Shown here: positions 8,597-49,734 of the stretch, piece by piece
Numbering within the stretch: the stretch's first letter is position 1
Layout: the number at the start of each line of letters is the position of its first letter
Source of the DNA: Schmidtea polychroa
Lineage: Eukaryota
Direction: 5' to 3'
DNA: 64,000 nt
NCBI GenBank assembly: GCA_044892525.1
Contig: CM097888.1
Location: 81,282,001 to 81,346,000 of the forward strand
Made by a program: the position numbers and the translations under genes
Notes under the pieces: model-generated
What the model was told of the DNA's origin: nothing
Database searches by the model: none
What the model saw: only the letters and a program-made list of their open reading frames with translations

Positions 8597-10092
8597 GTTA
8601 GACAATTATTAAAATACCAAGTACTTCCTTATGTAATACTTCCTCTGATAAAAGCGTATCTAAAGAGCACAAAACTAAGGGTAAATCATTCAAGATTTTA
8701 ATTAGAAGTACTCCCATCGTTCAATTTGGTATTTTAACCGTTTGCGGACGGAATAAGCTATCGTATAAGCCATTTAAGGTCAAAATATGTATTAAGTACT
8801 CCGAAAGTACTTCCCATTTTATGATCAAGTATCCCATATTTAATTTAGGAGCTCGTTGGCCGAAAGGACAAAGGTGTCAGAAATCTACATAATAGATATG
8901 TAAAATTTGAGGACCCGAATTTGATCCTATTCGAAGTCTGTTAAATAAAAAGGATTTTCAAGAAATTTAAGTATTTATGAGCTCTCTATGCTGATGCTTA
9001 CCCAAAACAGGCTTTCAAGTTGTGAGGGGGGATTAAGTTATATAATTTTATTTTCATGTAATTGTTTGTGATTGTCATTATAGGTTAGGAAAGTAGTAAG
9101 TAGTAGCTAGTTGCGTATAACCCTTCTCGTGTAAGAGTGTCAATGCTTGAATGGTTCATATGCGGGTTTCAAATTCAATTCAAATTCAAGTACTTCCCAT
9201 ATTTTATTTACCACTTACTCAAAATTCGTATAAATTTTGAGGGAAATGACATTTTCCAAATATAATTGGTACAAATACTCGAAATGGCATGTCAAACAGA
9301 AAATTTCCCTTTAAAATGTGAAGCTGCAATGTCATTGAAAATCATTATTTAAATATATAAATTTAATTAGTCTAATCGATAAATATTAAATAAAAATTAT
9401 TTAGGTAAGATAATAAACTCTTTTCTATTGTAAAATATATTATAAAATTATATAAAAATTTCAGAAAAATGACTGAAACAAAGCATAAATAATTGAAATC
9501 AATAATATTTAAATTTAAATCTAAAATCAATTATATTTAAATATAAAATGGATACTAAAAAATTGTATGAAGTAATGATATGAATACGGTGGTTATGGTA
9601 TAATAACATTTAGTTATTAAAAAGATCTTGTTATATAATATTTAATAAATTCCTAATAATAATTATTAATAAAATTGAGTTGATTTCATCAATCTTACAA
9701 TGTACTTTTAATAACTTAATTATTATTTCAATCTGAGAAACTACTTTAAAAAAACAATATAAAATTTAAAATGAATAAAATCTAGATATTTAATAATAAG
9801 GAAAATTTTAAATCTTCAATAAAGAGGAGAGAAGAGTTGAGTATAGCAATAGTTGGATAGCAACAAATAATTTATGCAAATATTTCATAATTTCCAAAAA
9901 TCCCGGATAAATTTGTCATCATTCTATAAGAAGCTGATAGGGAGATTAAAAAATGAGAATCATTAGGGGTCGTATTTGGCATTATTTCCCACAAGAAATG
10001 TATTAGAATTATGTTACTATCTTAAATTTTGCTGATTTTAAATGAAATTCACACAAAACATTTAATAAAAATGTAAATTTCAGTCTTTCTAC

Positions 10093-10824
<732 letters not shown>

Positions 10825-11249
10825 AATCAATTATTATTAAAATAGTAAAATTATATATAAATATTTACTATGATAAAACAACAATGACCTACAGCATAAA
10901 AAATAATTAAAGGAGTATGTAAGAAAAAAATGCTTACATTAATATAAAAATTATTACATATTGTTGTATATAATTATGTAAATCAAACCTGTAAAAAAAT
11001 GTAAATTTTAATTCATTAAAATTTTACGAGATATTGATGATTGTCAAAGACCATCTGAATAAACTATTTATTTTACTCGTTGGAAAAATCGGTTATGGTT
11101 CTTTATATAGACAGAGCTCTTTATTATTCTAATTATTATTCTATTTCAATGGTTATAGTGAAGTATGAAGTTGGATAATGGATATATATAAATACGTGTC
11201 AACCAAAATTATATTTGTGTTGGGCTAGAACTGACTTCTAGACCCAAAT

Positions 11250-11830
11250 TGCTAATTGTGACCGAGATGTGTAGGTACACAGCATGTAAAAAAGCAAAAA
11301 GTATAGTTAAATATTAAAAACCACACTAAATAAACAATAGTAATTAAAGGAAAAAACAACAAAAACCTAAAACATAGAAATTAAATAAAATTCATACAGA
11401 AGCAAGAAGTTATGCAAAATCTAACTCAAAAATAACCAAATAAACATAGAATTACCAAAAGCAAACTCGAATAACTTAAAAGACGATAAAAACAGTAAAA
11501 CATTCCAGAAAAACCCAGAACATTCTATAAAAATGGCGATGACCATCACAACAGTCATCTAGAACAACAAAAGTTAAAGAAAATAAATAAATTAGCATTA
11601 AAAAACAAAAATCTCAAAAAGAAATTCATAAAAACATCAGTTAAAATAAAAATTAAATTAAAAGTAAAATAGAATGTTCTGGAACCGTTCCAAATCCATC
11701 ATGGACGTAAAATTAATGAAAAATAATTAGAAAATAAAAATATAAAAATAAAAACAAAAATTATAGCACTAAAATTTCCATTAAAAATGTCAAAATCACG
11801 AAATAGAAAATTCTGGAATAAAAAGAATTC
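11250..11830 (+). repeat. Strand-asymmetric A-rich interspersed repeat (homologous to 49165-49720 on the minus strand)
   Basis: Shared block TTCT(G/A)GA..CCAAA(T/C)CCATCATG..AATAATTAGAAAATAAAA. A similar T-rich tract lies at ~18950-19400. Confidence 0.55.
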
Positions 11831-12949
11831 GAGTTTGTTTTAATGCATCAATACATACACGTGTACAAAATAGGTATATATACCGACGCATTTTCGTCAC
11901 AATTCAGATATTCTTGTATGCCAAAAATTTTTTTTTTACCGAAATTTTGGACAACACTGAAAGTAAGGACCGTTGATTAATTTCATTTTTATTTGTATTG
12001 CATTATTATTATGTTTATTATATTCTTATCTTGTTTATTTTTTTTTCTATTACTGAACAAGAGTGACCAGCGTCGTCGTAAACGGATGGCATCCACGACG
12101 CTGATCAGCCTTGCTCCCACTAATTATTTCACATGCACTATACGGGTCTACGACCTCACATGCACTAAAATTCAATTTTTAACCGGAAGGTCGCCACGAA
12201 CAAATGGTTTCTAACCAGGAGTAGGGCGGTAAATCCATCCAGGTAGTTGGCATAGTCGCAGGGACTATGCGGACGAAATAAAATGCGGGCAAGTAATCGC
12301 GGAAAACATATTACAATAAGGCCTATCGTACCGTATTCAGTTGAATCGGGAAAGTAGGAAAATTTTAATTAATTCGACCTTCCGGTAAACGACACATCTA
12401 AATTACACACTCAAATATTCTATAGGAAATACATCATTAGGAACAACTAAACGGGAAAGATCCCAGACTCAATTTATCACAAAAGTTATCAAGTAGTCGG
12501 CTAATTGCACAAACTATTATTCAATATGCTCAATATTAACTATTGTTATTAGATTTTATTGATATTATTCATAATTATGTTCGATTTTAAAGATAATCTA
12601 ATCACGTTCAATGATGTATTAATTACAAGTCTTTATACTTACCTTACGGGTATTGAAATCCTTAAGAATTCTATTTTGCTTTGATAGTACTATCACCTCC
12701 AGGATCATTATCATTATCCTCAACTCCCTTTTCTCGTTGTCTTCATAGAGAGTGTGTCATCACCATCAGTATGTAATTGCATAGATCGGTATATTAAACT
12801 TAAAGAAAAGGTAATCTTTCTCGCCAATGTCACAAAGTCGTCAAACCACCAGTTCATGGTTATAACCCAACTGGAATATGTATAACTTACCTAGTTTCAT
12901 AAATGGTTCTTTGAACTATATATTTATTCATCAATCTCCTAACTTATTC

Positions 12950-13400
12950 TGATGTATATATTTAATATTAAAATGACAGTTTATAAATTTTCATATAGAA
13001 ATATCCTAACTTAGTTGGGTATATATATTTAACTTATAAAATATAAAAATGATAGTTTATAAATTTTCATAGATGATCCTCTGAATTATATATCTATCGT
13101 CCAATACCTAGATACCCTAATTTATTTTGATATATATTCAACTTACAAAATGTTAAAATGATAATTTATAAATCTACATAATTAGCCCTAAATTATATAT
13201 TTACCTAATTGTCCTAGATTCACTTATTTATATATATATTTAGCTTATATAATATGGAATCACTAATTTATAAATATTCATAAACATCCCCCCCCTGAAT
13301 CCTACCTTCATTATCTATTATACTAATATCTGAAAGTAACCTATTCAATATATACTTAGTCTTTAAAATGGTAAACTAATGATTTCATGAACACCCCCCT
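12950..13400. repeat. Degenerate tandem array, ~5 units of ~70-120 bp
   Basis: Recurrent ATATATT.AACT.ATA.AAT..AAATGA.A.TTTATAAAT.T.CATA, with C-runs in the last units. Confidence 0.6.
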
Positions 13401-13499
13401 GGATTATACATCTATTACCCACTGCATAAAACTTACACTTTTTATCAGGATTAACCTTATCGTTATTGCCATTATTAACATTGCTATTGTATTATCTTT

Positions 13500-13514
13500 A
13501 ATGTTACGATTACG

Positions 13515-13557
<43 letters not shown>

Positions 13558-13816
13558 GTAGTATTATCATTATTATTATTGGTAATGTATCACTACTATT
13601 ACTATCTCCATCACTATAATCATTATTATTAAAAAATTATTATTGTTATTATCATTACGATTATCATTACTATCATTATTATCATTACTGAGGCTATTAA
13701 TTCATTATTATTATTATTATTATTTTTGGTTGTTGTTGTTGTTGTCATTACTAATACTATCAATTCATTATTGTTATTATTATTATTATTTTTATTATTG
13801 TTGTTGTTACCTTTAA

Positions 13817-13851
<35 letters not shown>

Positions 13852-13870
13852 GTAACATGATTATATATGG
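13500..13870. repeat. Compound (ATT)n/(ATC)n/(GTT)n microsatellite
   Basis: Directly visible; explains the poly-Leu and poly-Ile ORFs at 13387 and 13760. Confidence 0.95.
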
Positions 13871-14361
13871 CATGTTACTATTAATAGGAAAATTCGAAAC
13901 CGACAATATCGATTTTTTTTGTAACAAAGTTAGACCAATAATACCGCTTCTATTATTAGTAACAGCCCTACAAACCAAGGGTTAACCCCTACGAACTACT
14001 CCTAACTAATCGAATGGGTGATACATACTCTCTCAAGAACGGACCAATCAACGTCAACTAAAGTGGTGATAACTCCAATCTGTATGGGAAAACCAGGACA
14101 CTGGCAGACTTGACCCTGTTACCCAGGAGTAGAACTCATGTATGCCAAGGGACCGGGTCCCCGAGAGCAACGACCTGAATTAGAATACCTGCCCAGTAGG
14201 ATCAAAAGTTAAGAATAATAATAATTCATGATTGCTAATTATGCATATTTCCCGGAAGAGTTAACCAAATTACTTGATAAATTACTTTACGATACATAAA
14301 ATTTACTTAAAAGAGATGCAACCAAAGTGAAAATATATTTAATGAAATCAACAATATTTGC

Positions 14362-14870
14362 TTACGAAACCATTCTAGCAAGTAAAAGAGTCTCACCAGT
14401 AATACCAAGGAATGAATAGAAGAGGGCTACTCGGAAACCCTCGGGGTCCAATTGCTGTTGTAAATTCTCATGGCATATAGATCGAGGAAAGAAAAATTTC
14501 CGAAACAAATATAAATTTCCAAAATTCCCACTTAAATGCCCCACGAATTGAGTATATAGGCATATCTGGGATTAATACCAAGCGACAATAACCCCAACAC
14601 GTTAACTGCCTGAAATGCCATTTCCAAAATGGAGGGCTTGAAAACCCATTCCTAACACTAGACAAATTTAAAAAATGAAAGGTTGACTTACCCGTCGAAT
14701 ATCAGCTGATGAATGAGCCACTTACAACCACTATGGTCAGGGATTCACAAAGAGCTGAATGTAAATTCAGTCAATTTGCAATATCCGCTTTCCATAGTGG
14801 GTCAGAGCAGCATAAATTCCACTGACCATATTGGTTCCAAGTTTTTCTTGTTAATTTACTGACTATATAG
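14362..14870 (-). pseudogene. Spliced, decayed gene of unknown hydrophobic protein
   Basis: Donor GG|GTAAGT near 14691 and acceptor TTTGTCTAG| 34 bp later join in phase: ...WNLCCSDPLWKADIAN*LNLHSALCESLTIVVVSGSFIS*YSTG|VLGMGFQALHFGNGISGS*RVGVIVAWY*SQICLYTQFVGHLSGNFGNLYLFRKFFFP... Four internal stops. Confidence 0.4.
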
Positions 14871-14933
14871 TAAGTTAACAAATTAAAATTTTAATTAACT
14901 TAAACAACGGATTCTAAAATGAATAATTTTAGC

Positions 14934-15185
14934 TTTAATTTATAAAACGTAAATTACCCATTTTTATGGTATTAATTACCAAACCAGTAAGGGTGGCTTT
15001 AAATTTATTCCATTAAAATCGAACTTTAAATTTAATTTATAAAATGTAAATTACCCATTCTTAGGATATTACTTACTAAAGCAGTAAGGGTGACTTTAAA
15101 TTTATTTCATTAAAATTGAACTTTAAATATAATTTATAAAATGTAAATTACCCATTTTTATCGTATTAATTATCAAATCCGTAAG
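14934..15185. repeat. 97-bp tandem repeat, 2.6 copies
   Basis: Units start at 14934, 15031 and 15128 (T.TAATTTATAAAA.GTAAATTACCCATT...). Confidence 0.9.
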
Positions 15186-15327
15186 ACTATTGTCGAGTGG
15201 GTGAACTGTTGGGTGAAATGTATATTATGCTAAAATGTGAGTGGTGAAAGTGTATTCAGACGTTTTTGACTAACCCCGTAGTTGGATGGACAGGGAGTCG
15301 TGTTAATGTCCCTTTATCATTACAGAT

Positions 15328-15786
15328 ATGCCCAACACCATGATATGGAACGCACAGGCCGGACCCTCATCCTTCGATTCAAGCCGCGGACCACCAAGCG
15401 AGGAAACAGACGAAGCCGTACGACTACGGGAAGATGCAGAGGTTGCCCGCCTAAGGTCCCGGTGGATATGGTACAAAATCCACGATTGGACCTATCAGAA
15501 TGTGGTTCCAGTGACCCCGAAGATCGAACCGTATATTAATTATACGTCACTGACTCTGAGTGACGCCTTCGACAATGTGAAAGAGGCGGTGGACCGGCTA
15601 GACCGGCTCGAAACATCAGTCCTGGCCGGCGAGTTGGAAGACATCGACGGCTACGCCCGAGCCCAGTGCCACCCAAAGCGGACCGCAGCTCTTCGCCGGG
15701 AGCTGGAGTACTTAGGAACTTCTCGACGGGGAGCGGAACCGGCGAGAAAACGTGGGCGTCCGCGGAAAACCGCCCAATTCAACTAA
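15328..15786 (+). CDS. Unknown 152-aa protein with C-terminal AT-hook (RKRGRPRK); cassette copy 1, ORF1
   Basis: GC-rich open ORF preceded by acceptor TTTATCATTACAG|AT-ATG. 12/31 identities by hand to 34942-35295 in the core (D.....V.RL...E.....G.LED.DG.A) plus the shared AT-hook. Confidence 0.65.
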   Translation: MPNTMIWNAQAGPSSFDSSRGPPSEETDEAVRLREDAEVARLRSRWIWYKIHDWTYQNVVPVTPKIEPYINYTSLTLSDAFDNVKEAVDRLDRLETSVLAGELEDIDGYARAQCHPKRTAALRRELEYLGTSRRGAEPARKRGRPRKTAQFN

Positions 15787-16184
15787 GATAATCGCCGGGC
15801 CAAATATCCGCACCTTGTGATGCGACTTCGAGTGGACTCTTACTCACTATAATGATTAGCATGTCTCGACTTCGTTATCATCGCAGTGTAAAGTGTGATT
15901 GTCTTGCAATTCTGCATTTGATTTTCTCTTAACCTATGTGAAAATGTTGTTATTTTATGTTTTGGTTTATTAATATTAAGTTGCTTGTTCGAATTTCCTT
16001 ATTGTATACGTATATACTGATATTCCTTTAAACGTTGACTATTATCACCAACCTCATAACATCTTAGTGAAACTCATAAGACCGGAGTTGGGGTTTAGGT
16101 GCGCACGGATGCGGGCTGCGACGGGGAGATTATAACTTTTGCCACAATGGTGTTAGCGATATAACGTGGATACTTGACGAAAGT

Positions 16185-16674
16185 GTGAAGAGATGCTCAT
16201 TTTTATTTATTTCAGTGATAAAACTCCTGGAAGAAATGAGAGCCGACAGAGAGAGGGCGCAACGACAGGTAGAAGAGTATCGGGCCAAGTTAATGCGACT
16301 TAAGGCCCATTGCCGAAACTTCGAGGGCACCTGGTTCCCGCCCACAGAGATGAAGAAGCGAATGAAACTCATCACCCAGTTGCAACTCCAGAGCGCCCAA
16401 GATCAAGTTGAGTTGCGGGCCCTCCGCCTGAGGGTGAGAGAGCTGGAAGTCCAGTCGCACCAACAAAACCTTGATCGAGAGGTCATCTCCGGGATCCGCA
16501 ATGGATGAGCTGCTCCACCAACGAAAGGAATGCGCAGCGTCGAAGATCCCGAAGAAGAAGATCCGGCCGGGTAAAGCGGCGCGGGCGAAAATCCGCCAAG
16601 CCTGTCAGGCCCAAGCGACGCTCAAGGCTACTTCGTCAGAGTCTGCACCGAAAGAACCGACTATAACCCTATGA
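16185..16674 (+). CDS. Unknown coiled-coil protein; cassette copy 1, ORF2 (overlapping basic tail ORF 16471-16674)
   Basis: Acceptor TTTTATTTATTTCAG| at 16215. VIKLLEEMRADRE...KAHCRNFEGTWFPPTEMKK has 20/48 identities by hand to the 33565-33786 ORF. AATAAA at ~16694. Confidence 0.65.
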
Positions 16675-16789
16675 GTTTTGATTTTGTGTTGTGAATAAAT
16701 ATTATGGGTGTATTCATATCTGGGTATTTCGAATTTGCCATAATGTTGAGTTTCGGAATAGGGACAAAGAAAAACGGACATAGGCCTTC

Positions 16790-16990
16790 TATCGGCAGTC
16801 CGTGAACCCCAGTGGGTACTAGACAATTATAGTATGCTAAGCATGCTCACTTTTTGCTAGTGCCCAAGCCCTTGATACAGTACCAACGTTGATTACTCAA
16901 CGGGTATCAAGTGGTCAGCTATAAATTGTATTCTTGGTTACGCTGGAAACAGCATGAGGGGGTAAAGATTTTTCAGTACCTGTAACCCAC
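16790..16990 (+). ncRNA. Candidate structured RNA element (three stems), cassette copy 1
   Basis: Stems 16814-22/16857-65, 16870-77/16903-10 (inner 16886-91/16896-901) and 16936-42/16981-87. Pairing is preserved with different sequence in copy 2. Strand of function unknown. Confidence 0.55.
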
Positions 16991-18099
16991 CATTTGTGTT
17001 CATTATCATTAGCAGGTAAAATTATAACGCAGCATAAATTTTTTTTTATTTTGGAAAATTGCAACCTTCCAAAAATTTCATTGCATATTTTGTTGAAAAT
17101 GAAATGGAAATTGTTGAGGATGTCTAAATTGTAAAATTGTATAATTGTTAAATGAATAAAATCAGCAGTGGATGTATGAAATGTAGATTGTTTTGGAAGT
17201 CGGGATATAAAAATGGAGAAAATAAAATTCTATGTCTCGACAGCTGCCAGAAATAATAGAGAGATTAGGGATGAGCGAAGAATTATATTATGTACTTTAT
17301 GAGAATCAGATTAATTATTTTTCAAGAATTAGTTTATTTAATTTTTAAGAATTAGATTATTTATTTTCCAAGAATTATATTATTTACTTTACAAGAATCC
17401 TATTGTTTATGTTATCAAACTTACCGCCTCAGTCGAATGTGAGATTTCTGGATTGATTTATGACTATGGTTGTGTTTATACTGGTGATCTATGTTGGCCG
17501 AGTCCATCCGACAGTAGATCAAAATTATCGGTTTATCTGAGAATCTTAAGACGATTGTTAAAACTGAACTTTGTCACATTTAATCCGAATTGTTTAAAAG
17601 TGGTTGATGATAGTGAATTTGGCAATTTAACTGAGGGGTTCTAAATAAGTTTACGGAGAATTACAAACAATCGTAGCTAATTCGTATGAGACGGAAATGA
17701 TGATGAAGTTGATGTTTACGTGTGGTTTATCTCGACGCGGCGACCGATTAATCTGTTGTGAACTTATCGTCGACGAATTTTCGTGGGAAAATGACGAATT
17801 GTAGTCATGACAAATGAAAACTGGATTTTGTGAAAAAATTCTTCCTAGCCTACACCTATGCCTGATCGTAAATTGAACTCTCGTTGAAATGTCAGACCAA
17901 ACGTTGGATGATTATTAACGAACGGTGAATAAGATTAGTAAAGAGTTGACACAAACGATGTCGGTTCACAAATCTTTGGGAATTACAATAACTACTCTAC
18001 GGAAAAAATTCTCTCAGTGATTATTCTATGTCTAGAAATTCTACGCATTTCAAGATTGCTGCAATGGTCTTCGAATTTTCACCTGTGGTTATGCATGTG

Positions 18100-32900: not shown

Positions 32901-33039
32901 GTTTGTAAAGTCCACAGTGACTGAGAGTCAATGAGCAGATGAACTCCACTACTAGAACTACTTACTCCCTTTTCATTTTCGGGTTCAGAACTTCCTATAG
33001 GTCTTACTACACTTTTCATTATCTCTCCCTTTAGATTTA

Positions 33040-33240
33040 GTGGGTTACAGATAGTGCATATTTTACCTTTCCGAGCTTTTACCAGTGTAACCCAGAATAC
33101 AATGATGTATTATCGCTTGGCGCCCATTGAGTGGTCAATGTCAGTACTGCACCAAGTGGGAGAGTGCTCGCAAAAAGTGAGCTCACTACTTGCACTATAG
33201 TTGTCAAGCACTCATTTGGGTTCACGGACGGCCAATAGAA
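33040..33240 (-). ncRNA. Candidate structured RNA element, cassette copy 2
   Basis: Stems 33213-05/33170-62, 33156-49/33123-16 (inner 33140-35/33130-25) and 33093-86/33049-42. Homologous to 16790-16990. Confidence 0.55.
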
Positions 33241-33389
33241 GACTTATGTTCGATTTATATTGGTCCCTTTACTAGATTGTTTTCCCTACTCCAGTATACT
33301 TTCGTCATACACACCATACAGATAGAAGCCCACCTATACGCACACATACATATGTACACATGAAACGACTACCTTTTAATAACAAATAT

Positions 33390-33786
33390 TTATTTACTAA
33401 TGTACACGGCACATTCGAAACTCCTCTTCTGCTGAGCTGGGTTGGCCATACGAGTCTTTTCAATTTTTCCCGCGTATCGCGGCCCGATCGTTGTCGCTTT
33501 GGTTTGATGGGTTGTGCGGGTGATCTTCTCCAGCGCCCGCACTTGAATTTTTAGCCCGTATATTTCAGTTTGAACCTGGGCGCTCTGAAGTTGGAGTTAC
33601 TGTATCAACTTCAGCTGTTTTTTTTATTTCGGTGGAGTTGAACCAGGTGCTCCCGAGTTCTCGACATCGCGCCTTGAATTTGACTATTTGGGTCTGCAGC
33701 TTCTCCATTTGTTGGTGCGCCTGCTTCCGGTCCTTGTTCATGTTTTCCATTAGCTCGAACACTAAATAATGACACGTGAATTTCAA
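33390..33786 (-). pseudogene. Coiled-coil ORF2, cassette copy 2 (frameshift in an A-run)
   Basis: Acceptor TGTCATTATTTAG|TG. VFELMENMNKDRKQAHQQMEK..KARCRELGSTWFNSTEIKK, then LQLQSAQ in a shifted frame as in copy 1. Confidence 0.6.
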
Positions 33787-33933
33787 AATAACGTATACCG
33801 ATGTTCTATCAAGTTGACACAGATTACAGTCACACTGCGTCTGAAACAGTTACACTCCTTAATTTCCTCAGAGTTTATTCCTTAACTGGATGTTCATTTA
33901 GTCAACTCTAAGTTCCCTTTTTTAGATCTTTCC

Positions 33934-34652
33934 TGTGTGATGAAAATGTTGGGGTTAGCGCAAAAACCAAAAATTCATATAAAAGTAAAAGTGCAAAATT
34001 AATTAAAATTTAATAAAAATCAATATTGGGTATGGTTGAACGCCAAATTGATAGACGAATTCAGAAATTATAATAAAAATTTATATAAGTGTTCACAGGG
34101 AAAGTTAAAGCGAAAAAAAACAAATTAATTAATCGGTAATGGAAAACCCGAGTCAATGGAAACCCCGAGCCCATAGGAAACCTGATTCGCAGTGATACCC
34201 GAGAAGTGAGATAAAAAGAGGAATATTTTGAGCTCTAATCAAGAGTAAACAAATTAGAAATCCAAAAATATTAATTTAGGATAATTTAGCGCAATTTTCT
34301 AGATAATTGGCCTCTTATGAAAAGTATAATAAGAGAGCTCAGAAGTGAACTAGCCGCCATTTGGTCGAAGAAAGGAAAAGAAAACAGAAGCATAATTCGC
34401 CGATCGATAATTTGAAGGAGAAATATATTGCGACTCGAAGCAGAAAAGATGATTACCCCTTGGGTTTTTCTACCTTATCGCGTGAAAAGTATCTAGAGAG
34501 AAAGGTGCAAATAGTGACAAATTGTAATTGTGATAAAGATTTAATAAAAAGTATTCTGTGTTGGGTTTGAGTTATTTGGCTGAATAAGAACACGAGGAGT
34601 CAGAGAGATAGCCGACTTTCAATTAAAAATCCAACAAAAATAAAGCTCAACA
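33934..34652 (+). mobile_element. Possible solo LTR inserted between ORF1 and ORF2 of cassette copy 2
   Basis: Absent from copy 1. Starts TGTG(TG)ATG, candidate end CTCAACA; flanks TTTCC/TATCC match at only 4/5. Confidence 0.3.
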
Positions 34653-34941
34653 TATCCTTAAAATGTTTTTCTAAATTAATATGAATACGAAAACCAAAAT
34701 TCATTAAATTAATCTTTTAAGAAAACAAACAATAAACATATCCAATGCCACTAATATCCCGCCGAAAGCATGTACACAAGCAATACGTATTGTTAGACAA
34801 AAGAAAATCTATAAAATACTGTCATAATGTGGGAGCAATCAGAGTTACACATTGCTACGATACTTAGTCAAACTTATTGGTCCATAATGGACAAGATCGC
34901 GGGGAAAACTTGTGTGGCCAATGTGACACTTGCCGGTGGTT

Positions 34942-35295
34942 TCAGTCCCTTCTACCTATTTTTCGGGGTCGTCCTCGTTTTCTGGGTATCACTAGCTGTG
35001 GTGATTGGACGTTGGTCGAGCTTGTGTAGACCCGCTCCTGCCCCATTTGGATGCCTGACATCCAATCGGTTTCCATCCCGCTGAGGGCATCTCCATCCGG
35101 ATCCTCCAACTTTCCGGTTCGGATTCGGTGCTCTATCTCACGGAGCCGTGCTACCGAATAGCCTATATCGTCAATGTACTGTATACGGTCCTCCCGCTCT
35201 GGGTTGGTCATGGCTTCTTGTTTCACCCAGCATGGGGCTCCTGGTTCCCTGCCCGTCTGGGCTACCTGAGGACGGCAGTGGAGCTCAATTGTCAA
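34942..35295 (-). CDS. AT-hook ORF1, cassette copy 2
   Basis: ...YIDDIGYSVARLREIEHRIRTGKLEDPDGDA...PRKRGRPRKI; homologous to 15328-15786. Confidence 0.6.
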   Translation of the reverse strand: MTIELHCRPQVAQTGREPGAPCWVKQEAMTNPEREDRIQYIDDIGYSVARLREIEHRIRTGKLEDPDGDALSGMETDWMSGIQMGQERVYTSSTNVQSPQLVIPRKRGRPRKIGRRD

Positions 35296-35564
35296 CCCAT
35301 CAGACCAATGGTTTTCAATGTGTGCTCCACAGACCTCGGGGGCTCCTCGGCAAGGTTTAAAGAGCTTCTTAAAATTTTACAATTTCTGAAATTTTTGAAA
35401 TTCAGTGATGAACGCCGACATATGTCCTTCTACCGACGTCTTGAACCCACTCAAAAAGTCTAAAAGGGAGTAGTCTTAACACAGAGGCTCATCTGCCTTT
35501 TAGGTCTCATGATTCCGTGCATTATCAACATGGTCGTAATCATGGGTACCTAGTTAGTTTTGAT

Positions 35565-36627
35565 TTGGGGCCTGCCGAAGTGACTTTTTTGCCGAAGTCC
35601 GAAGTTCAAATTTTTAAATTACTATTTGGCCGAAGCCGAAGTCGAATCAAATGTCTGGTGCGCGAAAATAATTTAGGGACCTGTACCTACTGCAATGACC
35701 TACGGCGATACCAAGAAAGGAATCAACGCTAACCAAAATTATAACTAAATTATAGCTAACCAAAGCAGATGTGGCTGATGAAGATGATGTGGAAGGTGTT
35801 GGGCCTGCTGGCACTTCATCACGCGAGTTGTCCGTCGACGTTACAGCATTCATTGCATCCAGAAGCCATTGTTTTGCAGTGGCAGCAGTTTCCGCGTTAA
35901 AGAGACGAAGCTTGTACACTGGATCCAAAGCAGTAGATAACACGCACAACTTATTATTTTTAACGTTAGCATACCTGCGGCTGAGATCCGCAAGCATTTC
36001 AGCACGCATTGTTTGAATGCAGAGGTCTTCACCCTCCTTTGCTGGTCTCTTCAAAACTGCCTGAAGTACACGCACACTTGGAATAATCATTCCGCTTGTT
36101 GCAGGTGACAAACTAGCATTCCGCTTTTCCTCTTCAAATGGACGCAATGTCGACACGACCATTTCAATTAAGTTCCACTGATTGTTTGTCAGATTGGTGA
36201 CTTCGTTGTCTTGGATGTAGAGAGCTATTGCTTTTCTCTGTTCGATCAAACGTATAGTCGGAGATTAACGTATAAGGCTGCTATAGTGTAGAGAATAGAG
36301 ATGCATGAACATGAACGGCTATTGTGTACACAGCGACACAGCCACGGCTAGGCTAGACTTGTCAGTGTTCGTATGACATAGCCGTAGAAAGGAAAATCGA
36401 TAGTAAAGAAAAATGAACAACAACAACTAAGATTTTATTTACTTTCATTGTTTGCGTGTCGCCATTAATTTTAATGTAAATAATCACGGAACAATAATAA
36501 TTTATTATCGCTCAAGCAAAATTTCAATATTTGGATCGTACAGGGTCTATTGCCGAAGTCCGAAGTTTCCGAAGTGTTTGAACTTTGGTCCGAATCGAAG
36601 TTCAAATCAAAGTTCGGCAGGCCACTA
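35565..36627 (-). mobile_element. Internally deleted hAT (ZBED-like) transposon, 1063 bp
   Basis: TIRs TTGGGGCCTGCCGAAG / TTCGGCAGGCCACTA; TSD GTTTTGAT on both sides; CCGAAG subterminal repeats; transposase fragment 35647-36249 (WNLIEMVVSTLRPFEE, STALDPVYK). Confidence 0.9.
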
Positions 36628-37376
36628 GTTTTGATTAATCCTCTGGCGTTTTACACCTACTAATGCCTAGATTTTCCGTAATTGCCAACAAACTGAAAGA
36701 TAGAAAAGAAGCCAAAATAGGCAAAATGAATGGGAAACCATAATAAAACGGGTGGCAAATTTGTATAATAACATGCACTAGAAGGATTATTTATTTAAGA
36801 TATCCAACAAATTAAGCAAGCAATTAACAAATACTTAAAAAAATATTAAATAATTCAATCAAGCAAATAACAGATAGGCAATTGCAAAAAAAAGAAATAT
36901 CTACAATTTAACAAAATTTGTGAATATAGCAGAGTTACAAGAAGCAAAAATTTAATATGTTTGAGTGATGACAACCAAGGGTCAAGTAATATAAAGAAAA
37001 CAAATGTTTGAATGATTTCCTCCTAAAATATAATACAAAATGTTCTCTTATCTTTAAAATTTGCTGTAAAGCATATAAACTTTGAAAATCAACACGACAT
37101 TTTTTCGAGTAATTTTTCTATTCTATTTCGACTATACCTTTTATAAAATAAAATATTCAACTAAATTTCTAGAAAATATAAAATTTATGACCTAAGATGT
37201 TTAGTACTGACTTTATTTAAATTGTTAATTTAACCAAATTTACATTTTATAAATAATGTTTATTTTCTCGACTTTGTAATTTTGTTTTATTGCATTATCG
37301 GCCACATTTAAAGCGGTATTTTAAATCAATATAATTTTAATTATTTTTTAAAATTAATATATTAATATATTAACAA

Positions 37377-38780
37377 ATGTTCGAAATAATGGATATCACG
37401 ATGAAGTTTATGGATATGAATAAAGAAGTTCTATTATTTTTATGTATATTCCTGTTCATGTGGTTGACCTATTTGTGGGATGCTTACTTAGATTGTAGAC
37501 AGCAAAAGGTTCTTAATAAATTAGTCGAGCCTACAACTGAAACTTCTTTAATAATGAATGAAGAAAATTATAAAAAAGCAAGGCTTTATAGTATAGATAC
37601 TAAAAGATTTGGCTCGTATCATAAATTATACCAAATGGTAGAATCCTCTCTTGTGTTGTATTATAATATTTTACCATGGCTGTGGAAGTTTTCGCTTTCC
37701 TTAATTGTGAGCAAAGTCGAAAATTTGACAGTTATTCAAGAGTTGAATGCGTCTATGCTGTTTTTATTAATTGCTGGTCTGTATTCGTTTGTTTTTGGCA
37801 TGCCTTGGAAAGTGTATAGTATATTTGTTATTGAGGCAAGACATGGTTTCAATAAACAAACACCTTTTTTCTTTATTAAAGACCAGATCAAGTCTTTGTT
37901 TGTATCAGTCATTATAATGTTACCAATTTCATATTGTTTATTATTCATTATAAAGTTAGGGGGTCCATATTTTTATGTGTATGCATGGTGTTTTGCTTTT
38001 GTAATAATGATGTTTTTAATGTTTGTTTATCCTGAATTTATAGCTCCATTATTCGATAAATATACTCCGTTAGCTGATGGTGAATTGAAAAAAGGAATTG
38101 AAAATCTTGCTGAGAAAATTGGATTTCCACTGAAAAAGTTATATGTTGTCGAGGGTTCTAAGAGGTCTAGTCATAGTAATGCTTATTTTTATGGAATTTG
38201 GAAAAATAAAAGAATCGTTTTGTTTGATACATTGTTGCAGAATTATGTGACAGATTCAGACTTGAATAAAACAGAAAATGATGAAAGTTCAGACGGGAAA
38301 AAAGGTTGCAATGATGAAGAAGTTATTGCTGTTTTAGGACATGAATTAGGCCATTGGAAATTAAATCACGTATTACAAAGTTTAATAATTAGTCAAATTA
38401 ATCTGTTTCTTATGCTTTTTATGTTTGGTATTTTGTTTAATTTAAATGTCTTGTTTAGAGCTTTTGGTTTCGTGGAAATAGAAACACCCACTTTAATTAG
38501 GTTGTTATTGATAATTTGCTATTTATTTAGTCCTTATCATTTCGTTTTGGAATTTTTTATGACTTTGTTGTCAAGAAAAAAGGAATTTGAAGCTGATGAG
38601 TTTGCAGTAAACCTGGGCTATGGAGAAAAATTGATTAATGCATTAGTTAAACTGCATAATGATAATTTATCATTTCCAATTTTTGACAATTTGTATTCAA
38701 TTTTTAATCATTCTCATCCTCCTATTTTAGAAAGAATAGAAGCTATTAAGAATAATAAAGAATATAAAAAAACAAAATGA
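37377..38780 (+). CDS. ZMPSTE24: CAAX prenyl protease 1 (peptidase M48), 467 aa, single exon
   Basis: HELGH zinc motif, VVEGSKRSSHSNAYFYG, IVLFDTLL, EFEADEFA, HSHPPILERI; multiple TM segments; uninterrupted ORF. Confidence 0.97.
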   Translation: MFEIMDITMKFMDMNKEVLLFLCIFLFMWLTYLWDAYLDCRQQKVLNKLVEPTTETSLIMNEENYKKARLYSIDTKRFGSYHKLYQMVESSLVLYYNILPWLWKFSLSLIVSKVENLTVIQELNASMLFLLIAGLYSFVFGMPWKVYSIFVIEARHGFNKQTPFFFIKDQIKSLFVSVIIMLPISYCLLFIIKLGGPYFYVYAWCFAFVIMMFLMFVYPEFIAPLFDKYTPLADGELKKGIENLAEKIGFPLKKLYVVEGSKRSSHSNAYFYGIWKNKRIVLFDTLLQNYVTDSDLNKTENDESSDGKKGCNDEEVIAVLGHELGHWKLNHVLQSLIISQINLFLMLFMFGILFNLNVLFRAFGFVEIETPTLIRLLLIICYLFSPYHFVLEFFMTLLSRKKEFEADEFAVNLGYGEKLINALVKLHNDNLSFPIFDNLYSIFNHSHPPILERIEAIKNNKEYKKTK

Positions 38781-38886: not shown

Positions 38887-40433
38887 ATGGCTTCTAATTT
38901 AGATGTTGAAGTACTTTCAAAGTATAATAATATTTTATTAGTTATTTCCAATAACCATAATTTAAAAGGTGTATTATTACCTGTTAATGACGAGTAATTT
39001 TATAACAATAAATATATCTAATTGTTATCATTAATTATAGAAACAAACTTCGATTAGAACATTTTATTAATAATTATAATAAAGAAAACAATAATATTGA
39101 AGTGAAACCTGAACAAGAAAGCTTATTTTGTATACCTGATTCAACGTTGTCTCATTCAGCAGTAGAATCAAATATGAGCACCAATCTCAGTAATAATAAT
39201 GACGTGTGTAAAAAATGTAAACGTGTATTAAAAGCAACTAAACGAAAATTAGTAAGCAGAGAAGTAGAACGCCTTACTAATCATGGATTCAATGAAGTAA
39301 TTTTAAAGAAAAAAAACATATCGAGACGATCTACAAAAACTAAAGAAGAATTAGTTAACGGAGAAAAGTTCAATGGAAAAATTTATAAAAAGAGATCACA
39401 TGATCAAAATAAGGAAAGTGATTCAGATTTAAATAACGGTGGTTCTAAGGTTTTAAATGCCAAAAAAGACGAAGTTTTATCCATTCGAAAAACTAAAGAC
39501 AGAGCTCTTAAAACAAAAGCTAATGAGAAGATAATTGACTTATGTACTAGAAAACCAAGTAAGGTCAAAAAGTACAAACAAGAATTAAAAAAGAAATTAA
39601 AAATAGATCACTCTGATGAAATATTATCCGCGAATTCACCAGTTAAAGTGTCCGATGCATCTATATATGATTTTGTTGATGAAGATTACGAATCTGAACC
39701 CATTAAACCTTTATATAAAGAAAATAAAAAGTCTTATTTCATTGATAAAAGTAGTAATTCTACGAAACTCGATAAACGAAGCTATCAACGAAAGTTACCA
39801 GCAAAAGCTAGTAATAAAGATGATGAAATTCATTCAAATCCTGGCATTATGTTTTATGAATATAAAGGTACTAAGTTTAGTATAAATAATATAGTTTGGG
39901 CTAAAATTCCGGGCTATCCATTTTGGCCGGCACATATTAAGTCATTCGATAATGTAAGTGCCTCGAAATCTCAGGGTAAAAGGTGTCGAATTAATTGGAT
40001 TGGTTGGAATCAAAAGTCATTTCTACCACTTAAATCTCTATTGCATTTCGAAGAGCATTTCAAAATGAAGTATTCCACGAAGTTCAAATCACAAAAGTAT
40101 AAAACCGCTATTGAACTCGCTTGTAAAGAATTGAATTTAAATCTTGATGATTTGATAGGAGAATTGCCTAAGAAATCGCCAATGTCGGATAGGAATAATT
40201 CATCGCAAAATTCAAACCACGGCAAAAGGAAATCAATAGATTTAGATGACATTTTCCCTACTAAGAAAAATTCGAAAAATATTTCAGACATTGATGTGGT
40301 TGCCAAAGCTTATTCGGATGAAGATACGGACGAAGAGGAAAAAGCTCGATCTGCCTTGATCACAGCCGAAAGTTTGGAGGCGAACAGAATGATGTCGGAC
40401 ATGATGATGAAAAAGACTGAATTTGATTACTAA
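38887..40433 (+). CDS. PWWP domain protein, PWWP2-like, 499 aa, 2 exons
   Basis: Exon 1 38887-38993, 47-bp GT-AG intron, exon 2 39041-40433 (1500 nt total). IVWAKIPGYPFWPAHI...INWIGWNQKSFLPLKSLLHFEEHF..KYKTAIELA resembles the PWWP2 domain. Confidence 0.88.
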
Positions 40434-44063: not shown

Positions 44064-46470
44064 TGTCACAGGTAAACCCAATTTTACATTGTCAAGTTGT
44101 CGCCCAACGCAACCCATAATGCAATGGTTTGCTATGCCATTCGACACCCGTTGGATGATCAACGTTGGAACAGTGTTGGATGAGAGAATACTCGCGAACT
44201 ATAAAATATTAAAAGAGAGTTTGACTGCTACTCCGCATTTCCTATGCTGCTGTTCATTAGTTCATTAGCTAGAATTTTCTCACTCTGTACGTCCTGTTGT
44301 AATGATTGGATCTAATCTCTCGCTCTAAAGTAATATATCATGATTAAAGTGCTTGAAGGTATGGGAAATTGCTAAGTATTAGTTAAGTAATTTTAATAGT
44401 TATATACACAGTCAAAGTTTATAAAGTTTAATTATTTACTATTTATTTTTACATCAAAATTTCACCAGAAAAAAAACTCTATAGGACATCGTTTCCCCCC
44501 TCTACTCTGTATCCACTGCTGTAAATTATCTCAGGCACTACCCGTCATCGTCGTTGATTCCCAATTCTTCACACTAACAAAATGATAACGAAGAAAATAA
44601 ACAACACTTTTATTTCGACTTAATAAAAACACATCAATGCTCCAAATACATCAAGCACCAATCGTGGCATCGGATTTTGTTCGGGAACCGACTTTGTGTA
44701 CGTCTGTTGGATGTCTCAACTGGATGCCAAAGCACATTTTCTAGCACTTCGATTTCGCTATTCAAGTATTGTGCAAGATCTATTTTCCATGATTGATCTA
44801 CCAGGTTACATTGTTCGCCACCAGTACTGGGAATCAGTCACGTTCAACGCGAGGTAGATGTCCAATGGCTTCGTGTATTGCATGAACAACCAGGGACCGA
44901 GCTAACCGCGTGTCGCTCAGTATGGGTTCCTTCGTGAGCATAATCATAGGTTCCTATTAGTGGTTCGCAGATAATCCACATTTTACTATGTCGTGTTGTC
45001 GCTAACGCAACCAAAGATACAATGGTTTGCATCTGTTGAATGATGAACGTTTGAACTGTTTGTACTGGGCGAATACTCGTGAAAAGTTTGTCACCTTTGT
45101 CACAATCAATTATCCTTGTGGTGACAAATTTCATTATCCACTCTTCTTTGAGTATTCGAGCCATTGCCTTCTCATATTGTATTTTAACCGCATGTAGGGA
45201 AATAAATTTACTGCGATAGTCAATAATCCCAATAACGTATAGTTCACCTCTTATTACTGGTTGTAATGAGCCACAAAAATTCATGTTAATTCTCTTGTAT
45301 AACTTAGAATCGTTTGTACATATCATTTTTCTTTAATTCTTGTTGTATCAACCTTTCGTTTTTAACAATTTTCACAAGCTTGTACAGTATTAAGAACAGA
45401 TTGTTCTAAATCTTTCATGTTAAAATTGTTTGATATATGCATTTTGACTTTCATAGCACCAGCATGATAAATCTTTTTATAATACTCTATGATGAACTTA
45501 GATTTGTTATCCTTTGGAATCCAAATTTTGTTATCAGTTGTTACTACAACTCCATTTATGTATTTAAAGAATGTTTTATTCGGGTTTTTATCAATACTTT
45601 CTTTCAACCTTTCAATATTTTTGCCATTTTTTTCTATTATTAGTGTTAACAATCTGGTTTTTAACTTACCCATCTTAGGGTTTTCATGAACGTTTGGTAA
45701 ACGTTTCAAACCAAAGCGTTAGCGTTACTATGATTTTCACCTTTTCTGCATTGTAAATCAATGTCTAAACTGCCAAGATAATTTATCCATGTTTGAAATT
45801 GTGAAGTAATAGCTTTCTTAGTTTTCATCATAAATGTAATAGCTTTGTGATCTGTTCTTAGTATAAAACCCTTACCATATAAATAATGCTTAAAATGATT
45901 CGTAAAATAAAATTTAGATAATAATAATCTAGATAATAGCCTAATTTATGCTTACTCATGGGCCGAGATTTATACGCAATGACTCTTTTTTATTTCACTT
46001 TGTTTGAGATAATACAGCACCGATGAGATCAAAGCATCGTTATCCAATATGAACAGCTTAGTAAAATCTGAAAATTTTAAAACAGATGTAGACGTTGATT
46101 TTAGCTTTAAATTTTGAAAAGAACTTTCACAGTCATCAGTCCACATTAGTTTCTTTTGTCTACTCCCACATAGCGCTTCTAATACTTTTGAGTCTTTTGT
46201 ATAATTTCCTATAAATTTGCAATAACAATTTGCTAGGCCTAAAAATCCTCCCAAACTGGCTTCATTCTTTTTGAATTGACATTTAGATGGGCATATTTTT
46301 GAGTTTGCTAATTCAATATTTTGAAATACTTTTTCAATAGTTTTATAATGTTCATCTAGTATTATAGAGAAGATAAGGATATCATCAAGATTCAATTCAC
46401 CAAGAACAAGATTCATAAGTCTTTGAAATGTTGCTGGTGCGGAAGCTATCCAAAATGGCATTATATTGAA
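44064..46470 (-). mobile_element. Ty3/Gypsy 3' part: RT-RH-INT remnants, PPT and 3' LTR (44488-44064)
   Basis: [28 protein letters not shown] (RT); YHAGAMK..CENC (zinc finger); integrase core at 44844-45326; PPT AGGGGGGAAACGA then TGT...ACA 425-bp LTR. Confidence 0.8.
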
Positions 46471-46698
46471 GTAATACCCTCTACCAAATTTTCCTATCAT
46501 TGAAATATCAGGTCTAGCCTGAAGTGCTTTCAAGAATGCCTTAGTTCCAGATCTTGCAATTGTTCTCAAATTATTAATAAAATCTGCCTTTGTCATTCCG
46601 ATTCCAGTGTCGATAATAGTTAAAGTTCCAGCATCTTTATCGTGAATCATTTGAATCATTAAATCATTTGCATTGTCAGCATGATACACAGCTTCCAT
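46471..46698 (-). pseudogene. HSP90: HSP90 N-terminal ATPase fragment A
   Basis: [53 protein letters not shown] vs canonical [19 protein letters not shown](K/R)[28 protein letters not shown]. Confidence 0.92.
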
Positions 46699-48361: not shown

Positions 48362-48819
48362 AAAAGAGTGCCGGGGCCTATAGTATCTTCAATTTCCCTT
48401 GCTGACCTAGGTATCAAACTCCCTCATCCACTGGAACTTACACAATGGAAACCTATTTCCTTTGAGACAAACGTATAACTCTTTCCCCAAACTTCATAAA
48501 ATTATAGCACCTTAAAAAGACGCCCGCTAAACTAACTCTAAAAACTGGGGAGTGAAGGGTGGCCAAAACTGATTTAAAATGCCTCAAATAATTTTCAACA
48601 TACATATATAAAAAATTAACAATATTCAAAATTGATTTTGATTGCCTCACATCACTTTCAATATTCATGTATAAAAAATTAAACTAATAATCACTTATCT
48701 GATACTGTCTATATCACCTTTAGTTTGGTAAGGCTGGATCATCTGGATCACCTGCGCGATTAATCTCTTTTCTGGTGCATAGCCCCTTGAAGGGAACCAC
48801 ACTGCTACCATGGTGAATT

Positions 48820-48938
48820 GAGTAGAACCCCTTACTCAATTGTCCTATAATTGAAACATCAGCTCCAGCCTGAAGTGCTTTCACGAATGCCTTAGTTCCA
48901 GATCTTGCAATTGTTCTCAAATTGTTAATCAAATCTGC
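48820..48938 (-). pseudogene. HSP90: HSP90 N-terminal ATPase fragment B
   Basis: [39 protein letters not shown]; ~14 mismatches in ~118 nt versus fragment A. Confidence 0.9.
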
Positions 48939-49734
48939 GAAACTTCAAAAATATCTTTATTCTACAAAATACGCGTGAAACTCCTTTTTCGAAACAAACT
49001 ATGAAACTTCCAGAAAACTTTCAATAATAAGTCAATTAATAAAACTAATAAAGTTCAAAATACATTGTATGTGACTGTGTGCGCACACATAGATATATAC
49101 ATTGTATATTATACAATTTCAAAACAACACAGACGTGATAATTAACCTCAGGATTGACCAATTATTTATGATTTATTTTATTTTCTAATTATTATATTTT
49201 ATTTAATTATATTTATTTCGCCATCATGATGGGTTTGGTCATTTTCTAGAATTTTCTATGCTATTTTTAATATTTTTATAATATAATTCCTATTTTTTAT
49301 TAACCAATTTTCTAAATTTTATATTTTTATCTAGTTGTTCGTTTCGGGGCCATGTAAGATTTCGTCATTTTCATAGAATATTCTAGTGGGTTTTATATAA
49401 TTTTTATTATTCCTAATCGATTTTTTATGCTATTTTAATGAACTCCTTCTATTTCTAGTTTCTATTTTCTTTTGTCACAATTTGAATTTGCCTACTCCTG
49501 GATATTTGTTTATACTATTTTATGTTTGTTTGTGCAATACTTCTTGCTTTTGCTATTAATTTACTTTATTTTTGTGTTTCTTCATTTTGATGTTGAGTAG
49601 TCTTTAATGTGTTTCTTTGGTGTTTTAATTGTTTTTCGATTTTTACTCGACTATGTCTGCGAGCTGTTTTTACACATTCTGATCACAAAATCAAATTTAT
49701 TTGGGTATAAAGTCAGGTTTTACCCAATACTTCT

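Follow-up and report, generated by a model that had tools for sequence, protein, structure and literature searches.

Two conserved genes within the long terminal repeat of a Burro-type retrotransposon of Schmidtea polychroa, with a probable leader-splicing mode of expression

The window analysed here is a stretch of 64,000 nucleotides of Schmidtea polychroa (GenBank assembly GCA_044892525.1, contig CM097888.1, positions 81,282,001 to 81,346,000 of the forward strand). It harbors two copies of a cassette of two open reading frames (ORFs), of which ORF1 carries an AT-hook-like motif and ORF2 encodes a coiled coil. Copy 1 is a solo long terminal repeat (LTR) of a Burro-type giant retrotransposon, with both ORFs situated inside the LTR; copy 2 is an old truncated LTR. 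Both cassettes lie where a preliminary description, made from the sequence alone, had placed them and in the order it gave; the RKRGRPRK and CR..E.TWF..TE.KK motifs, the splice acceptor of ORF2 and the AATAAA (16,694) are present, and the cassette is GC-rich as described (0.43-0.47 vs 0.2-0.35). Copy 1 comprises the following features, all on the forward strand; U3 and U5 denote the unique 3′ and unique 5′ regions of an LTR.

11,214-11,217: left 4-bp target-site duplication TTTG, from flank comparison
11,218-16,992: solo LTR of a Burro-type element, 5,775 bp, with TG…CA ends and no interior
11,218-11,885: putative U3, an A-rich (52% A) promoter region kept across subfamilies and inherited separately from the downstream LTR
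11,873-11,883: TATA-like box GGTATATATAC, found within two mismatches in 38 of 40 sampled LTR stretches
11,886-11,962: putative leader exon with a conserved ATG at 11,918 and A as its last base, followed by a donor GT at 11,963
14,691-14,812: conserved non-coding hairpin in the putative intron, in some subfamilies only
15,328-15,786: ORF1, 152 aa, with an acidic N-terminus, two to three helices and the C-terminal AT-hook-like motif RKRGRPRK; its acceptor AG ends at 15,325
16,216-16,508: ORF2 exon, starting with TG after an acceptor AG at 16,214-16,215; long coiled coil
16,694-16,699: AATAAA, a likely poly(A) signal judged by sequence
16,755-16,992: structured 3′ block, putative U5, adjoining the primer-binding site in full elements
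16,993-16,996: right 4-bp target-site duplication TTTG, from flank comparison

The source genome (781 Mb, four large contigs) was searched with both ORFs. The best 150 of 5,557 candidates were scored for ORF2 and all 150 match at 83% or more; for ORF1, all scored places were likewise filled by the best 150 of 1,790 candidates. The cassette is thus far more frequent than the two copies counted at first. Many ORF1 and ORF2 matches are paired on the same strand, 30-50 kb apart, and four such same-strand pairs were taken as full elements (31-37 kb) and compared with the window. Window positions 11,218-16,992 match both ends of all four at 93-98%. Extended to their ends, all four show TG…CA termini, 4-bp target duplications, a motif resembling a primer-binding site behind the 5′ repeat, and a linked pol. 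The two LTRs of an element are 99.5-100% identical in three cases and 96-99.7% in one, and the LTR-to-LTR spacing amounts to 30-31 kb plus one LTR (n=4). According to Pfam, the interiors encode gag, CCHC, MATH, viral fusion glycoprotein, protease, reverse transcriptase, RNase H, integrase, ankyrin, BIR, RING and TRAF domains, in that order; the BCL2-like, dUTPase-like and SUMO-like parts of Burro gave no clear Pfam match in the full elements at E 0.01. In one copy, the frame running from gag through MATH, env, protease, reverse transcriptase, RNase H and integrase to ankyrin spans about 4,770 codons from stop to stop.

Burro/GYPSM1 is described as an element of more than 30 kb with multi-kb LTRs, one huge frame of this same domain order (4,873 aa from gag to ankyrin) and accessory ORFs for BIR, RING and TRAF proteins (PMC6431247, partial text). 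By this described layout, the element hosting the cassette is a Burro-type giant env-bearing gypsy element, and the label "unclassified" given to the cassette at first no longer applies. The preliminary description had proposed accessory genes of a large mobile element comparable to Burro; the LTR matches and the interior domains identify them as genes of the Burro-type element itself. No reverse transcriptase lies near copy 1 because this copy is a solo LTR.

One 29-nt LTR motif has 1,475 exact genomic copies. For a closer survey, 40 LTR stretches were sampled from the first 54 listed places (14 were skipped, mostly second LTRs of one element). ORF1 was matched in 30 of the 40, ORF2 in 30 and both in 27, a few matches belonging to nested neighbours. 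The sampled copies differ in LTR length, from about 2.6 to 6.2 kb, and among the 30 for which both ends could be examined, 16 proved to be solo LTRs. The putative intron of the window LTR also contains an ATT microsatellite (13,515-13,851) and a 97-bp tandem repeat (14,934-15,185).

The AT-hook-like motif of ORF1 is invariant in 15 of 15 aligned sequences. Like AT-hook proteins of the HMGA type (PF02178), ORF1 has an R-G-R-P core with flanking basic residues; it differs in carrying a single C-terminal motif on a helical protein, and its score against Pfam AT_hook (15.9 bits) stays below the family cut-off of 17.4, with seven of 15 members matching at E 0.1. Structure prediction yields three loose helices and a disordered AT-hook-like tail for ORF1 (pLDDT 66, pTM 0.26). 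For ORF2 (isoelectric point 9.9-10.7), it yields a long coiled coil, hinged where the conserved CR..E.TWF.P motif lies and followed by a basic tail (pLDDT 82.5, pTM 0.36). The ORF2 of copy 1 is frameshifted near 16,500 and has 97 codons compared with 144-157 in intact sisters, so that their basic C-terminal part is left unread.

The sequence and fold searches that had been proposed for the two proteins returned nothing that points to a function. Neither ORF reaches a Pfam family cut-off. A protein database search found only P0001, an unspliced genomic gene call; the ESM Atlas gave generic coiled coils with low recognition; PDB sequences and BFVD contained no match for either ORF. The best hit of the fold searches reached Z 7.1 with a root-mean-square deviation of 7.2 over 94, and none of 539 pattern matches in metagenome contigs was confirmed. 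A profile search of 1.84 billion proteins produced four matches, namely P0001, two distant ORF2-like parts and one repeat artefact. The two ORF2-like proteins (P0003, for which hhalign gives 97.7%, and P0005) are about 30% identical to ORF2 copies and keep the motif and the basic tail. In their gene models, an ORF2-like C-terminal part is joined to other exons, in one case to those of a host protein with calponin homology whose counterpart in the source genome is 89-92% identical; these models may represent gene-prediction fusions or exon capture by an LTR in a related species.

Selection was assessed by pairwise counts of nonsynonymous and synonymous change (dN/dS) on natural copies with open frames (15 of 16 for ORF1, 22 of 27 for ORF2). 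The ratio is 0.23 for ORF1 (48 pairs) and 0.16 for ORF2 (43 pairs), both at dS 0.6-1.5; as a caution against taking these values at face value, the copies were picked by protein similarity and open frames, which biases dN/dS downward. Synonymous sites are saturated in 15 of 105 ORF1 pairs and 127 of 231 ORF2 pairs, and the spacers of the same copies are barely alignable. Both ORFs are under purifying selection between subfamilies, in agreement with the preliminary description; two lone copies with a ratio near 1, named there as the contrary outcome, were not what emerged. ORF1 and ORF2 recombine with each other, as seen from discordant dS.

A donor is conserved at the 5′ end of the LTR, 90 nt past the TATA-like box and about 4.2 kb upstream of ORF2. 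It was located in 37 of the 40 sampled LTRs, and its last exon base is A in 36 of these (25 distinct contexts), although the donor motif was imposed by the search and the copies share ancestry, so that these counts are not independent and carry less weight than they seem to. Positions -2 to -8 vary, both GTAAG and GTGAG occur, and donor-like motifs within the intron have A at -1 in only 13 of 90 cases. At the other end, ORF2 begins YAG|TG in 32 of 32 LTRs, and later third codon positions vary; the acceptor is pyrimidine-rich and lies directly at the ORF2 start, and many alleles have no other early Met. As the donor ends in A and ORF2 starts with TG, splicing would create the ORF2 start codon, an ATG formed across a putative intron of 4,253 nt.

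ORF1 has its own ATG, 2 nt past an acceptor in 14 copies and 1 nt in three; 11 further cases with YAG directly before the ATG, mostly an internal Gln-Met pair, were excluded from the acceptor evidence. An acceptor had been noted only before ORF2: this one stands, and ORF1 has one as well, just before its ATG. YAG lies 0-3 nt before the ATG in seven of eight accessory ORFs with their own ATG (ORF1 included), as opposed to 76 of 741 control ATGs. In the full elements (L041-L060, L153-L160), the ATG of each interior accessory ORF has an AG 0-3 nt before it, six times as YAG and once as AAG. Gag shows no clear acceptor before its start, and a candidate there was rejected as none was strong. This arrangement of motifs suggests that one leader is spliced to a whole series of acceptors. 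The conserved leader ATG is in fusing phase in 21 of 34 LTRs and out of phase in 13, and several leaders hold stops; the leader ATG is therefore probably dispensable.

Several other candidates were rejected. A donor at 14,870 lacks conservation, and as no donor is conserved in the ORF1-ORF2 spacer, a short intron or mini-exon was dismissed there; within ORF1, too, no donor is conserved. A hammerhead was discarded for the block at 14.7 kb, whose would-be core is not kept and which has no Rfam match. The flatworm spliced leader ends in AUG, an end that would throw ORF2 out of frame, and spliced-leader trans-splicing was rejected for ORF2 on this ground. The hairpin at 14,691-14,812 has a folding energy of about -37 kcal/mol; its outer stem is changed on both sides in three copies, and it is missing in three other near subfamily copies.

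Of 23 distinct LTR ends, 17 have AATAAA or ATTAAA at a distance of 298-366 nt from the terminus; the signal is missing in L041. The RNA fold of the 3′ block has 52 pairs, 12 of them with changes on both sides (22 sequences), and its covariation exceeds that of all 500 shuffles; an Rfam scan across the whole LTR, including this block, gave no match. The last 238 nt of the LTR are a candidate packaging, priming or export element.

Inheritance within the LTR was analysed by rank correlation of pairwise identities in 44 colinear LTRs. Leader, intron, ORF2 and 3′ block correlate at 0.61-0.83 among themselves, but each of them at only 0.27-0.38 with the part that precedes the TATA box. For ORF2, the correlation is 0.27 with U3 and 0.81 with the 3′ block (partial correlations -0.08 and 0.79). 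The gap holds under resampling (0.40-0.65) and in 28 position-picked LTRs (0.39 vs 0.73). Twelve LTRs were chosen for their discordance with the window; in these, identity is close to 100% up to 11,880-11,890 and falls to 50-80% there. The solo LTR of the window is also a mosaic of this kind. In nine 5′ LTRs of one group, the DNA that follows the primer site tracks the upstream part (0.51) and not ORF2 (0.10); in one pair, identity is 97% in the upstream part, 99% behind the primer site and 70% in ORF2. Where elements share about 40% identity in ORF2 protein, their gag-pol and 3′ accessory genes are 91-99% identical in DNA, with 76-86% over the 1-2.6 kb that come directly after the primer site. 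When first strand transfer is intermolecular, the R-U5 segment (repeat plus U5) of one genome becomes joined to the U3 of another (PMC6894440, partial text). Taken with this outcome, the recombination pattern is most simply read as a start of transcription just past the TATA box and an R-U5 module of about 5 kb that includes both genes.

The following mechanism is proposed. Transcription from the LTR's own TATA promoter would start just past the TATA box, and the short leader exon would be spliced to one of two acceptors, giving an ORF1 or an ORF2 mRNA, the latter with its start codon formed at the A|TG junction. Both genes would reside in an R-U5 segment of about 5 kb, which two genomes packaged together would exchange during first strand transfer. 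This start site, the splices and the R-U5 assignment are considered likely. As to function, ORF1 might bind the A-rich U3 by its AT-hook and activate or de-silence transcription in the manner of Tax/Tas, and ORF2, with its coiled coil and basic tail, might enable genomic RNA to avoid splicing at the many acceptors and cleavage at the LTR poly(A) site and to exit the nucleus in the manner of Rev/Rem; solo LTRs would supply both proteins in trans. Nuclear regulators were chosen because one donor, many acceptors and a poly(A) signal in the 5′ LTR need control and because the ORFs would be cap-proximal products. These two roles are put forward tentatively, at somewhat below an even chance, and the whole explanation, from LTR genes, leader splicing, A|TG start and R-U5 exchange to nuclear regulators, is judged likely. 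A bolder extension is doubtful, namely that regulatory genes travel on minus-strand strong-stop DNA as a 3-5.7-kb R-U5 module encoding Tax-like and Rev-like proteins with a splice-gated start, swapped whole between co-packaged genomes, so that ancient alleles sit on a young backbone, and that solo LTRs, in their many hundreds, serve as free-standing expression units acting in trans on the family and perhaps on host genes nearby.

A number of observations weigh against this explanation. The contigs of seven sequencing runs, whose RNA nature is guessed and whose compared stretches exclude the leader, contained no spliced junction, nor did any contig end at either acceptor among the matches listed; one guessed-RNA contig runs unspliced from ORF1 through the spacer into ORF2. 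The splicing considered probable at first is hence backed by conserved splice signals and not by a junction in the contigs examined. An intron-less genomic copy, sought with one exact probe, was found zero times compared with 210 unspliced matches. The decayed copy L067 has GG|TG instead of AG|TG, one donor ends in G, and three of the seven YAGs double as the in-frame stop that precedes the ORF. The module itself is not free of recombination: out of 18 supported ORF2 splits, 11 conflict with the first intron stretch and five with the 3′ block, as against 15 with U3. The ratio dN/dS is about 0.7 in the four closest pairs of each ORF. As regards function, the searches described above found no homologue, family or fold that supports a role for ORF1 or ORF2. 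Tat, Tax, Rev and Rem gave no sequence or fold match (Pfam, PDB sequences, BFVD, PDB folds), a miss that excludes nothing given the loose helix models (pTM 0.26 and 0.36). For the snakehead retrovirus, a similar guess, of a Tat role on the strength of acidic and basic patches, did not hold up (PMC12193657, partial text).

Four rival explanations have to be considered. The sag gene of mouse mammary tumour virus (MMTV) is located in U3, and the ORFs could by this model belong to a giant U3, with genomic RNA starting near the LTR 3′ end, a short R, and the upstream TATA box and leader acting only as an internal promoter from which the accessory genes are expressed. R and U5 usually look like what is seen here, with a poly(A)-like signal some 300 nt ahead of the LTR end and a structured block behind it, and strong-stop DNA is not known to reach anything like 5 kb. 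This model predicts that the ORFs travel together with U3 and the interior and separate from the 3′ block. The reverse was found, ORF2 tracking the 3′ block and not the region upstream of the TATA box; this argues, if indirectly, against a sag-type U3 gene and makes the model improbable. Another proposal regards ORF1 and ORF2 as two exons of one gene, or both as fused to a leader peptide of 12-14 residues, with A|TG an internal Met. The 21 of 34 leaders in fusing phase fit it, as does one contig that links the ORF1 interior to the region just before the ORF2 acceptor, with unknown letters between. It is unlikely nonetheless: no phase-1 donor is common to more than seven of 16 ORF1 copies, the AT-hook-like motif ahead of the ORF1 stop is invariant, A|TG is kept where leaders are out of phase or stopped, and the spacing from the ORF1 acceptor to its ATG is 2 nt in some copies and 1 nt in others.

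The same architecture would equally accommodate proteins that act as specificity or host-interaction factors, e.g. in self/non-self exclusion between alleles, interference with piRNA silencing, or tethering of integration to AT-rich DNA. Protein alleles of about 40% identity on backbones that are 91-99% identical look like maintained diversity, Burro RNA rises after knock-down of smedwi-2 (PMC8532177, partial text), and the other accessory ORFs are host modulators of the apoptosis and ubiquitin type. Against this stand the purifying selection within and between allele groups and the recombination of ORF1 with ORF2, which is unlike a locked toxin-antidote pair. Such a specificity or anti-silencing role is a real, if lesser, possibility and a close rival to the nuclear-regulator role. 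It is scarcely credible, finally, that the ORFs are dead passengers, captured host exons kept only through LTR copying. The high ratio in the closest pairs and the many broken copies, both window ORF2 among them, would suit such passengers; the low ratios between subfamilies, with synonymous sites near saturation and spacers barely alignable, speak against them, and no host paralogue of the ORFs occurs among the scored genome matches or in databases.

Burro itself has been described before, and MMTV sag is an earlier example of a gene encoded in an LTR (PMC11998498). In the available text, Burro/GYPSM1 is described without LTR ORFs, a splicing programme, a U3/R boundary or exchange of LTR modules (PMC6431247, partial text). 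A literature search found no account of ORFs in the Burro LTR, of LTR genes downstream of the promoter, of a splice-made start codon or of allelic module exchange; Grohme et al. 2018 and the Repbase GYPSM1 entry were beyond its reach and may already show the ORFs. Sag resembles the present case as a protein gene in an LTR that is kept in most proviruses, polymorphic and recombining, and it differs in encoding one membrane protein under positive selection (PMC11998498, partial text), whereas here two soluble basic proteins under purifying selection show no sequence similarity to it. The ORFs also differ in position from sag, being downstream of the promoter and upstream of the primer-binding site.

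The start codon of Tax of human T-cell leukaemia virus is supplied by a tiny upstream exon. Complex-retrovirus regulators in general (Tax/Tas/Tat, Rev/Rex/Rem) share with the two ORFs the small basic proteins and, as proposed here, a common 5′ donor joined to alternative acceptors (for Rem PMC11998498 and for snakehead retrovirus ORFs PMC12193657, partial texts). Their genes, in contrast, lie at the interior 3′ end or overlap U3, and they have no homology or fold match to ORF1 or ORF2. Ogre elements of plants likewise combine LTRs of great length (1.9-6.5 kb) with additional ORFs whose function is unknown; those ORFs are described in the internal region and not in the LTR (PMC6431247, partial text).

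In planarian stem cells, Burro ranks with the most active elements (PMC6884822, partial text), and it is a main target of PIWI silencing (PMC8532177, partial text). For the expression of some nine accessory ORFs by a 35-kb Burro, the present findings provide exact coordinates of the promoter, donor, acceptor series, poly(A) signal and structured 3′ block. If the proposed mechanism is true, protein genes lying past the cap site and ahead of the primer-binding site, a start codon created by splicing and an allelic LTR segment of about 5 kb would extend the known roles of LTRs, and solo LTRs, usually seen as inert promoters, would be complete genes here.

Copy 2 and the insertions associated with it comprise three features:

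33,038-35,376, reverse strand: copy 2, an old 5′-truncated LTR relic with an ORF1 remnant (35,376-34,942), a frameshifted ORF2 from 33,762 and the 3′ block to 33,038
33,949-34,636, strand unassigned: 688-bp insertion in the copy-2 spacer, absent from three relatives
35,565-36,627, reverse strand: hAT-type insertion upstream of the copy-2 ORF1, with terminal inverted repeats and an 8-bp duplication

The ORF1 sequences of copies 1 and 2 are identical at 29 of 101 aligned residues (E 9e-5), and those of ORF2 align at E 6e-11. The conserved non-coding block that had been reported between the copies is borne out, 16,760-16,990 matching 33,268-33,040 at 71% over 234 nt (E 5e-23). The closest relatives of copy 2 among the matches listed are 84% identical in DNA and 62-70% in protein, and its ORF2 is frameshifted near 33,600. 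No primer-binding site was found after the end of the 3′ block at 33,038 and no U3 up to 37,500; with no Burro pol nearby either, an intact element was ruled out for copy 2. The hAT-type insertion has a match to a hAT-like RNase H fold at E 0.018, under the cut-off. Beside copy 2, short stretches resemble gypsy motifs by eye, a resemblance that no search confirmed. The gypsy RNase H relic reported there was not recovered, as three frames gave no Pfam match and tblastn no match with Burro or window gypsy proteins.

As regards the host genes and other repeats in the window, the solo LTR start (11,218) is located about 400 bp upstream of, and head to head with, the first coding exon of a spermidine synthase gene (10,049-10,830, reverse strand); because of this position, the LTR may influence the spermidine synthase promoter. 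Two genes on the forward strand, each with one long open frame, encode a CAAX prenyl protease (M48; 37,374-38,780) and a PWWP-domain protein (39,012-40,433). On the reverse strand, 45,970-46,698 contains an HSP90-like ATPase fragment (Pfam E 7e-5, under cut-off) that continues in frame into a reverse-transcriptase fragment, and related DNA recurs at 48,817-49,160. A Tc5/CENP-B-type DDE transposase is present in two frames at 54,846-56,415 on the forward strand.

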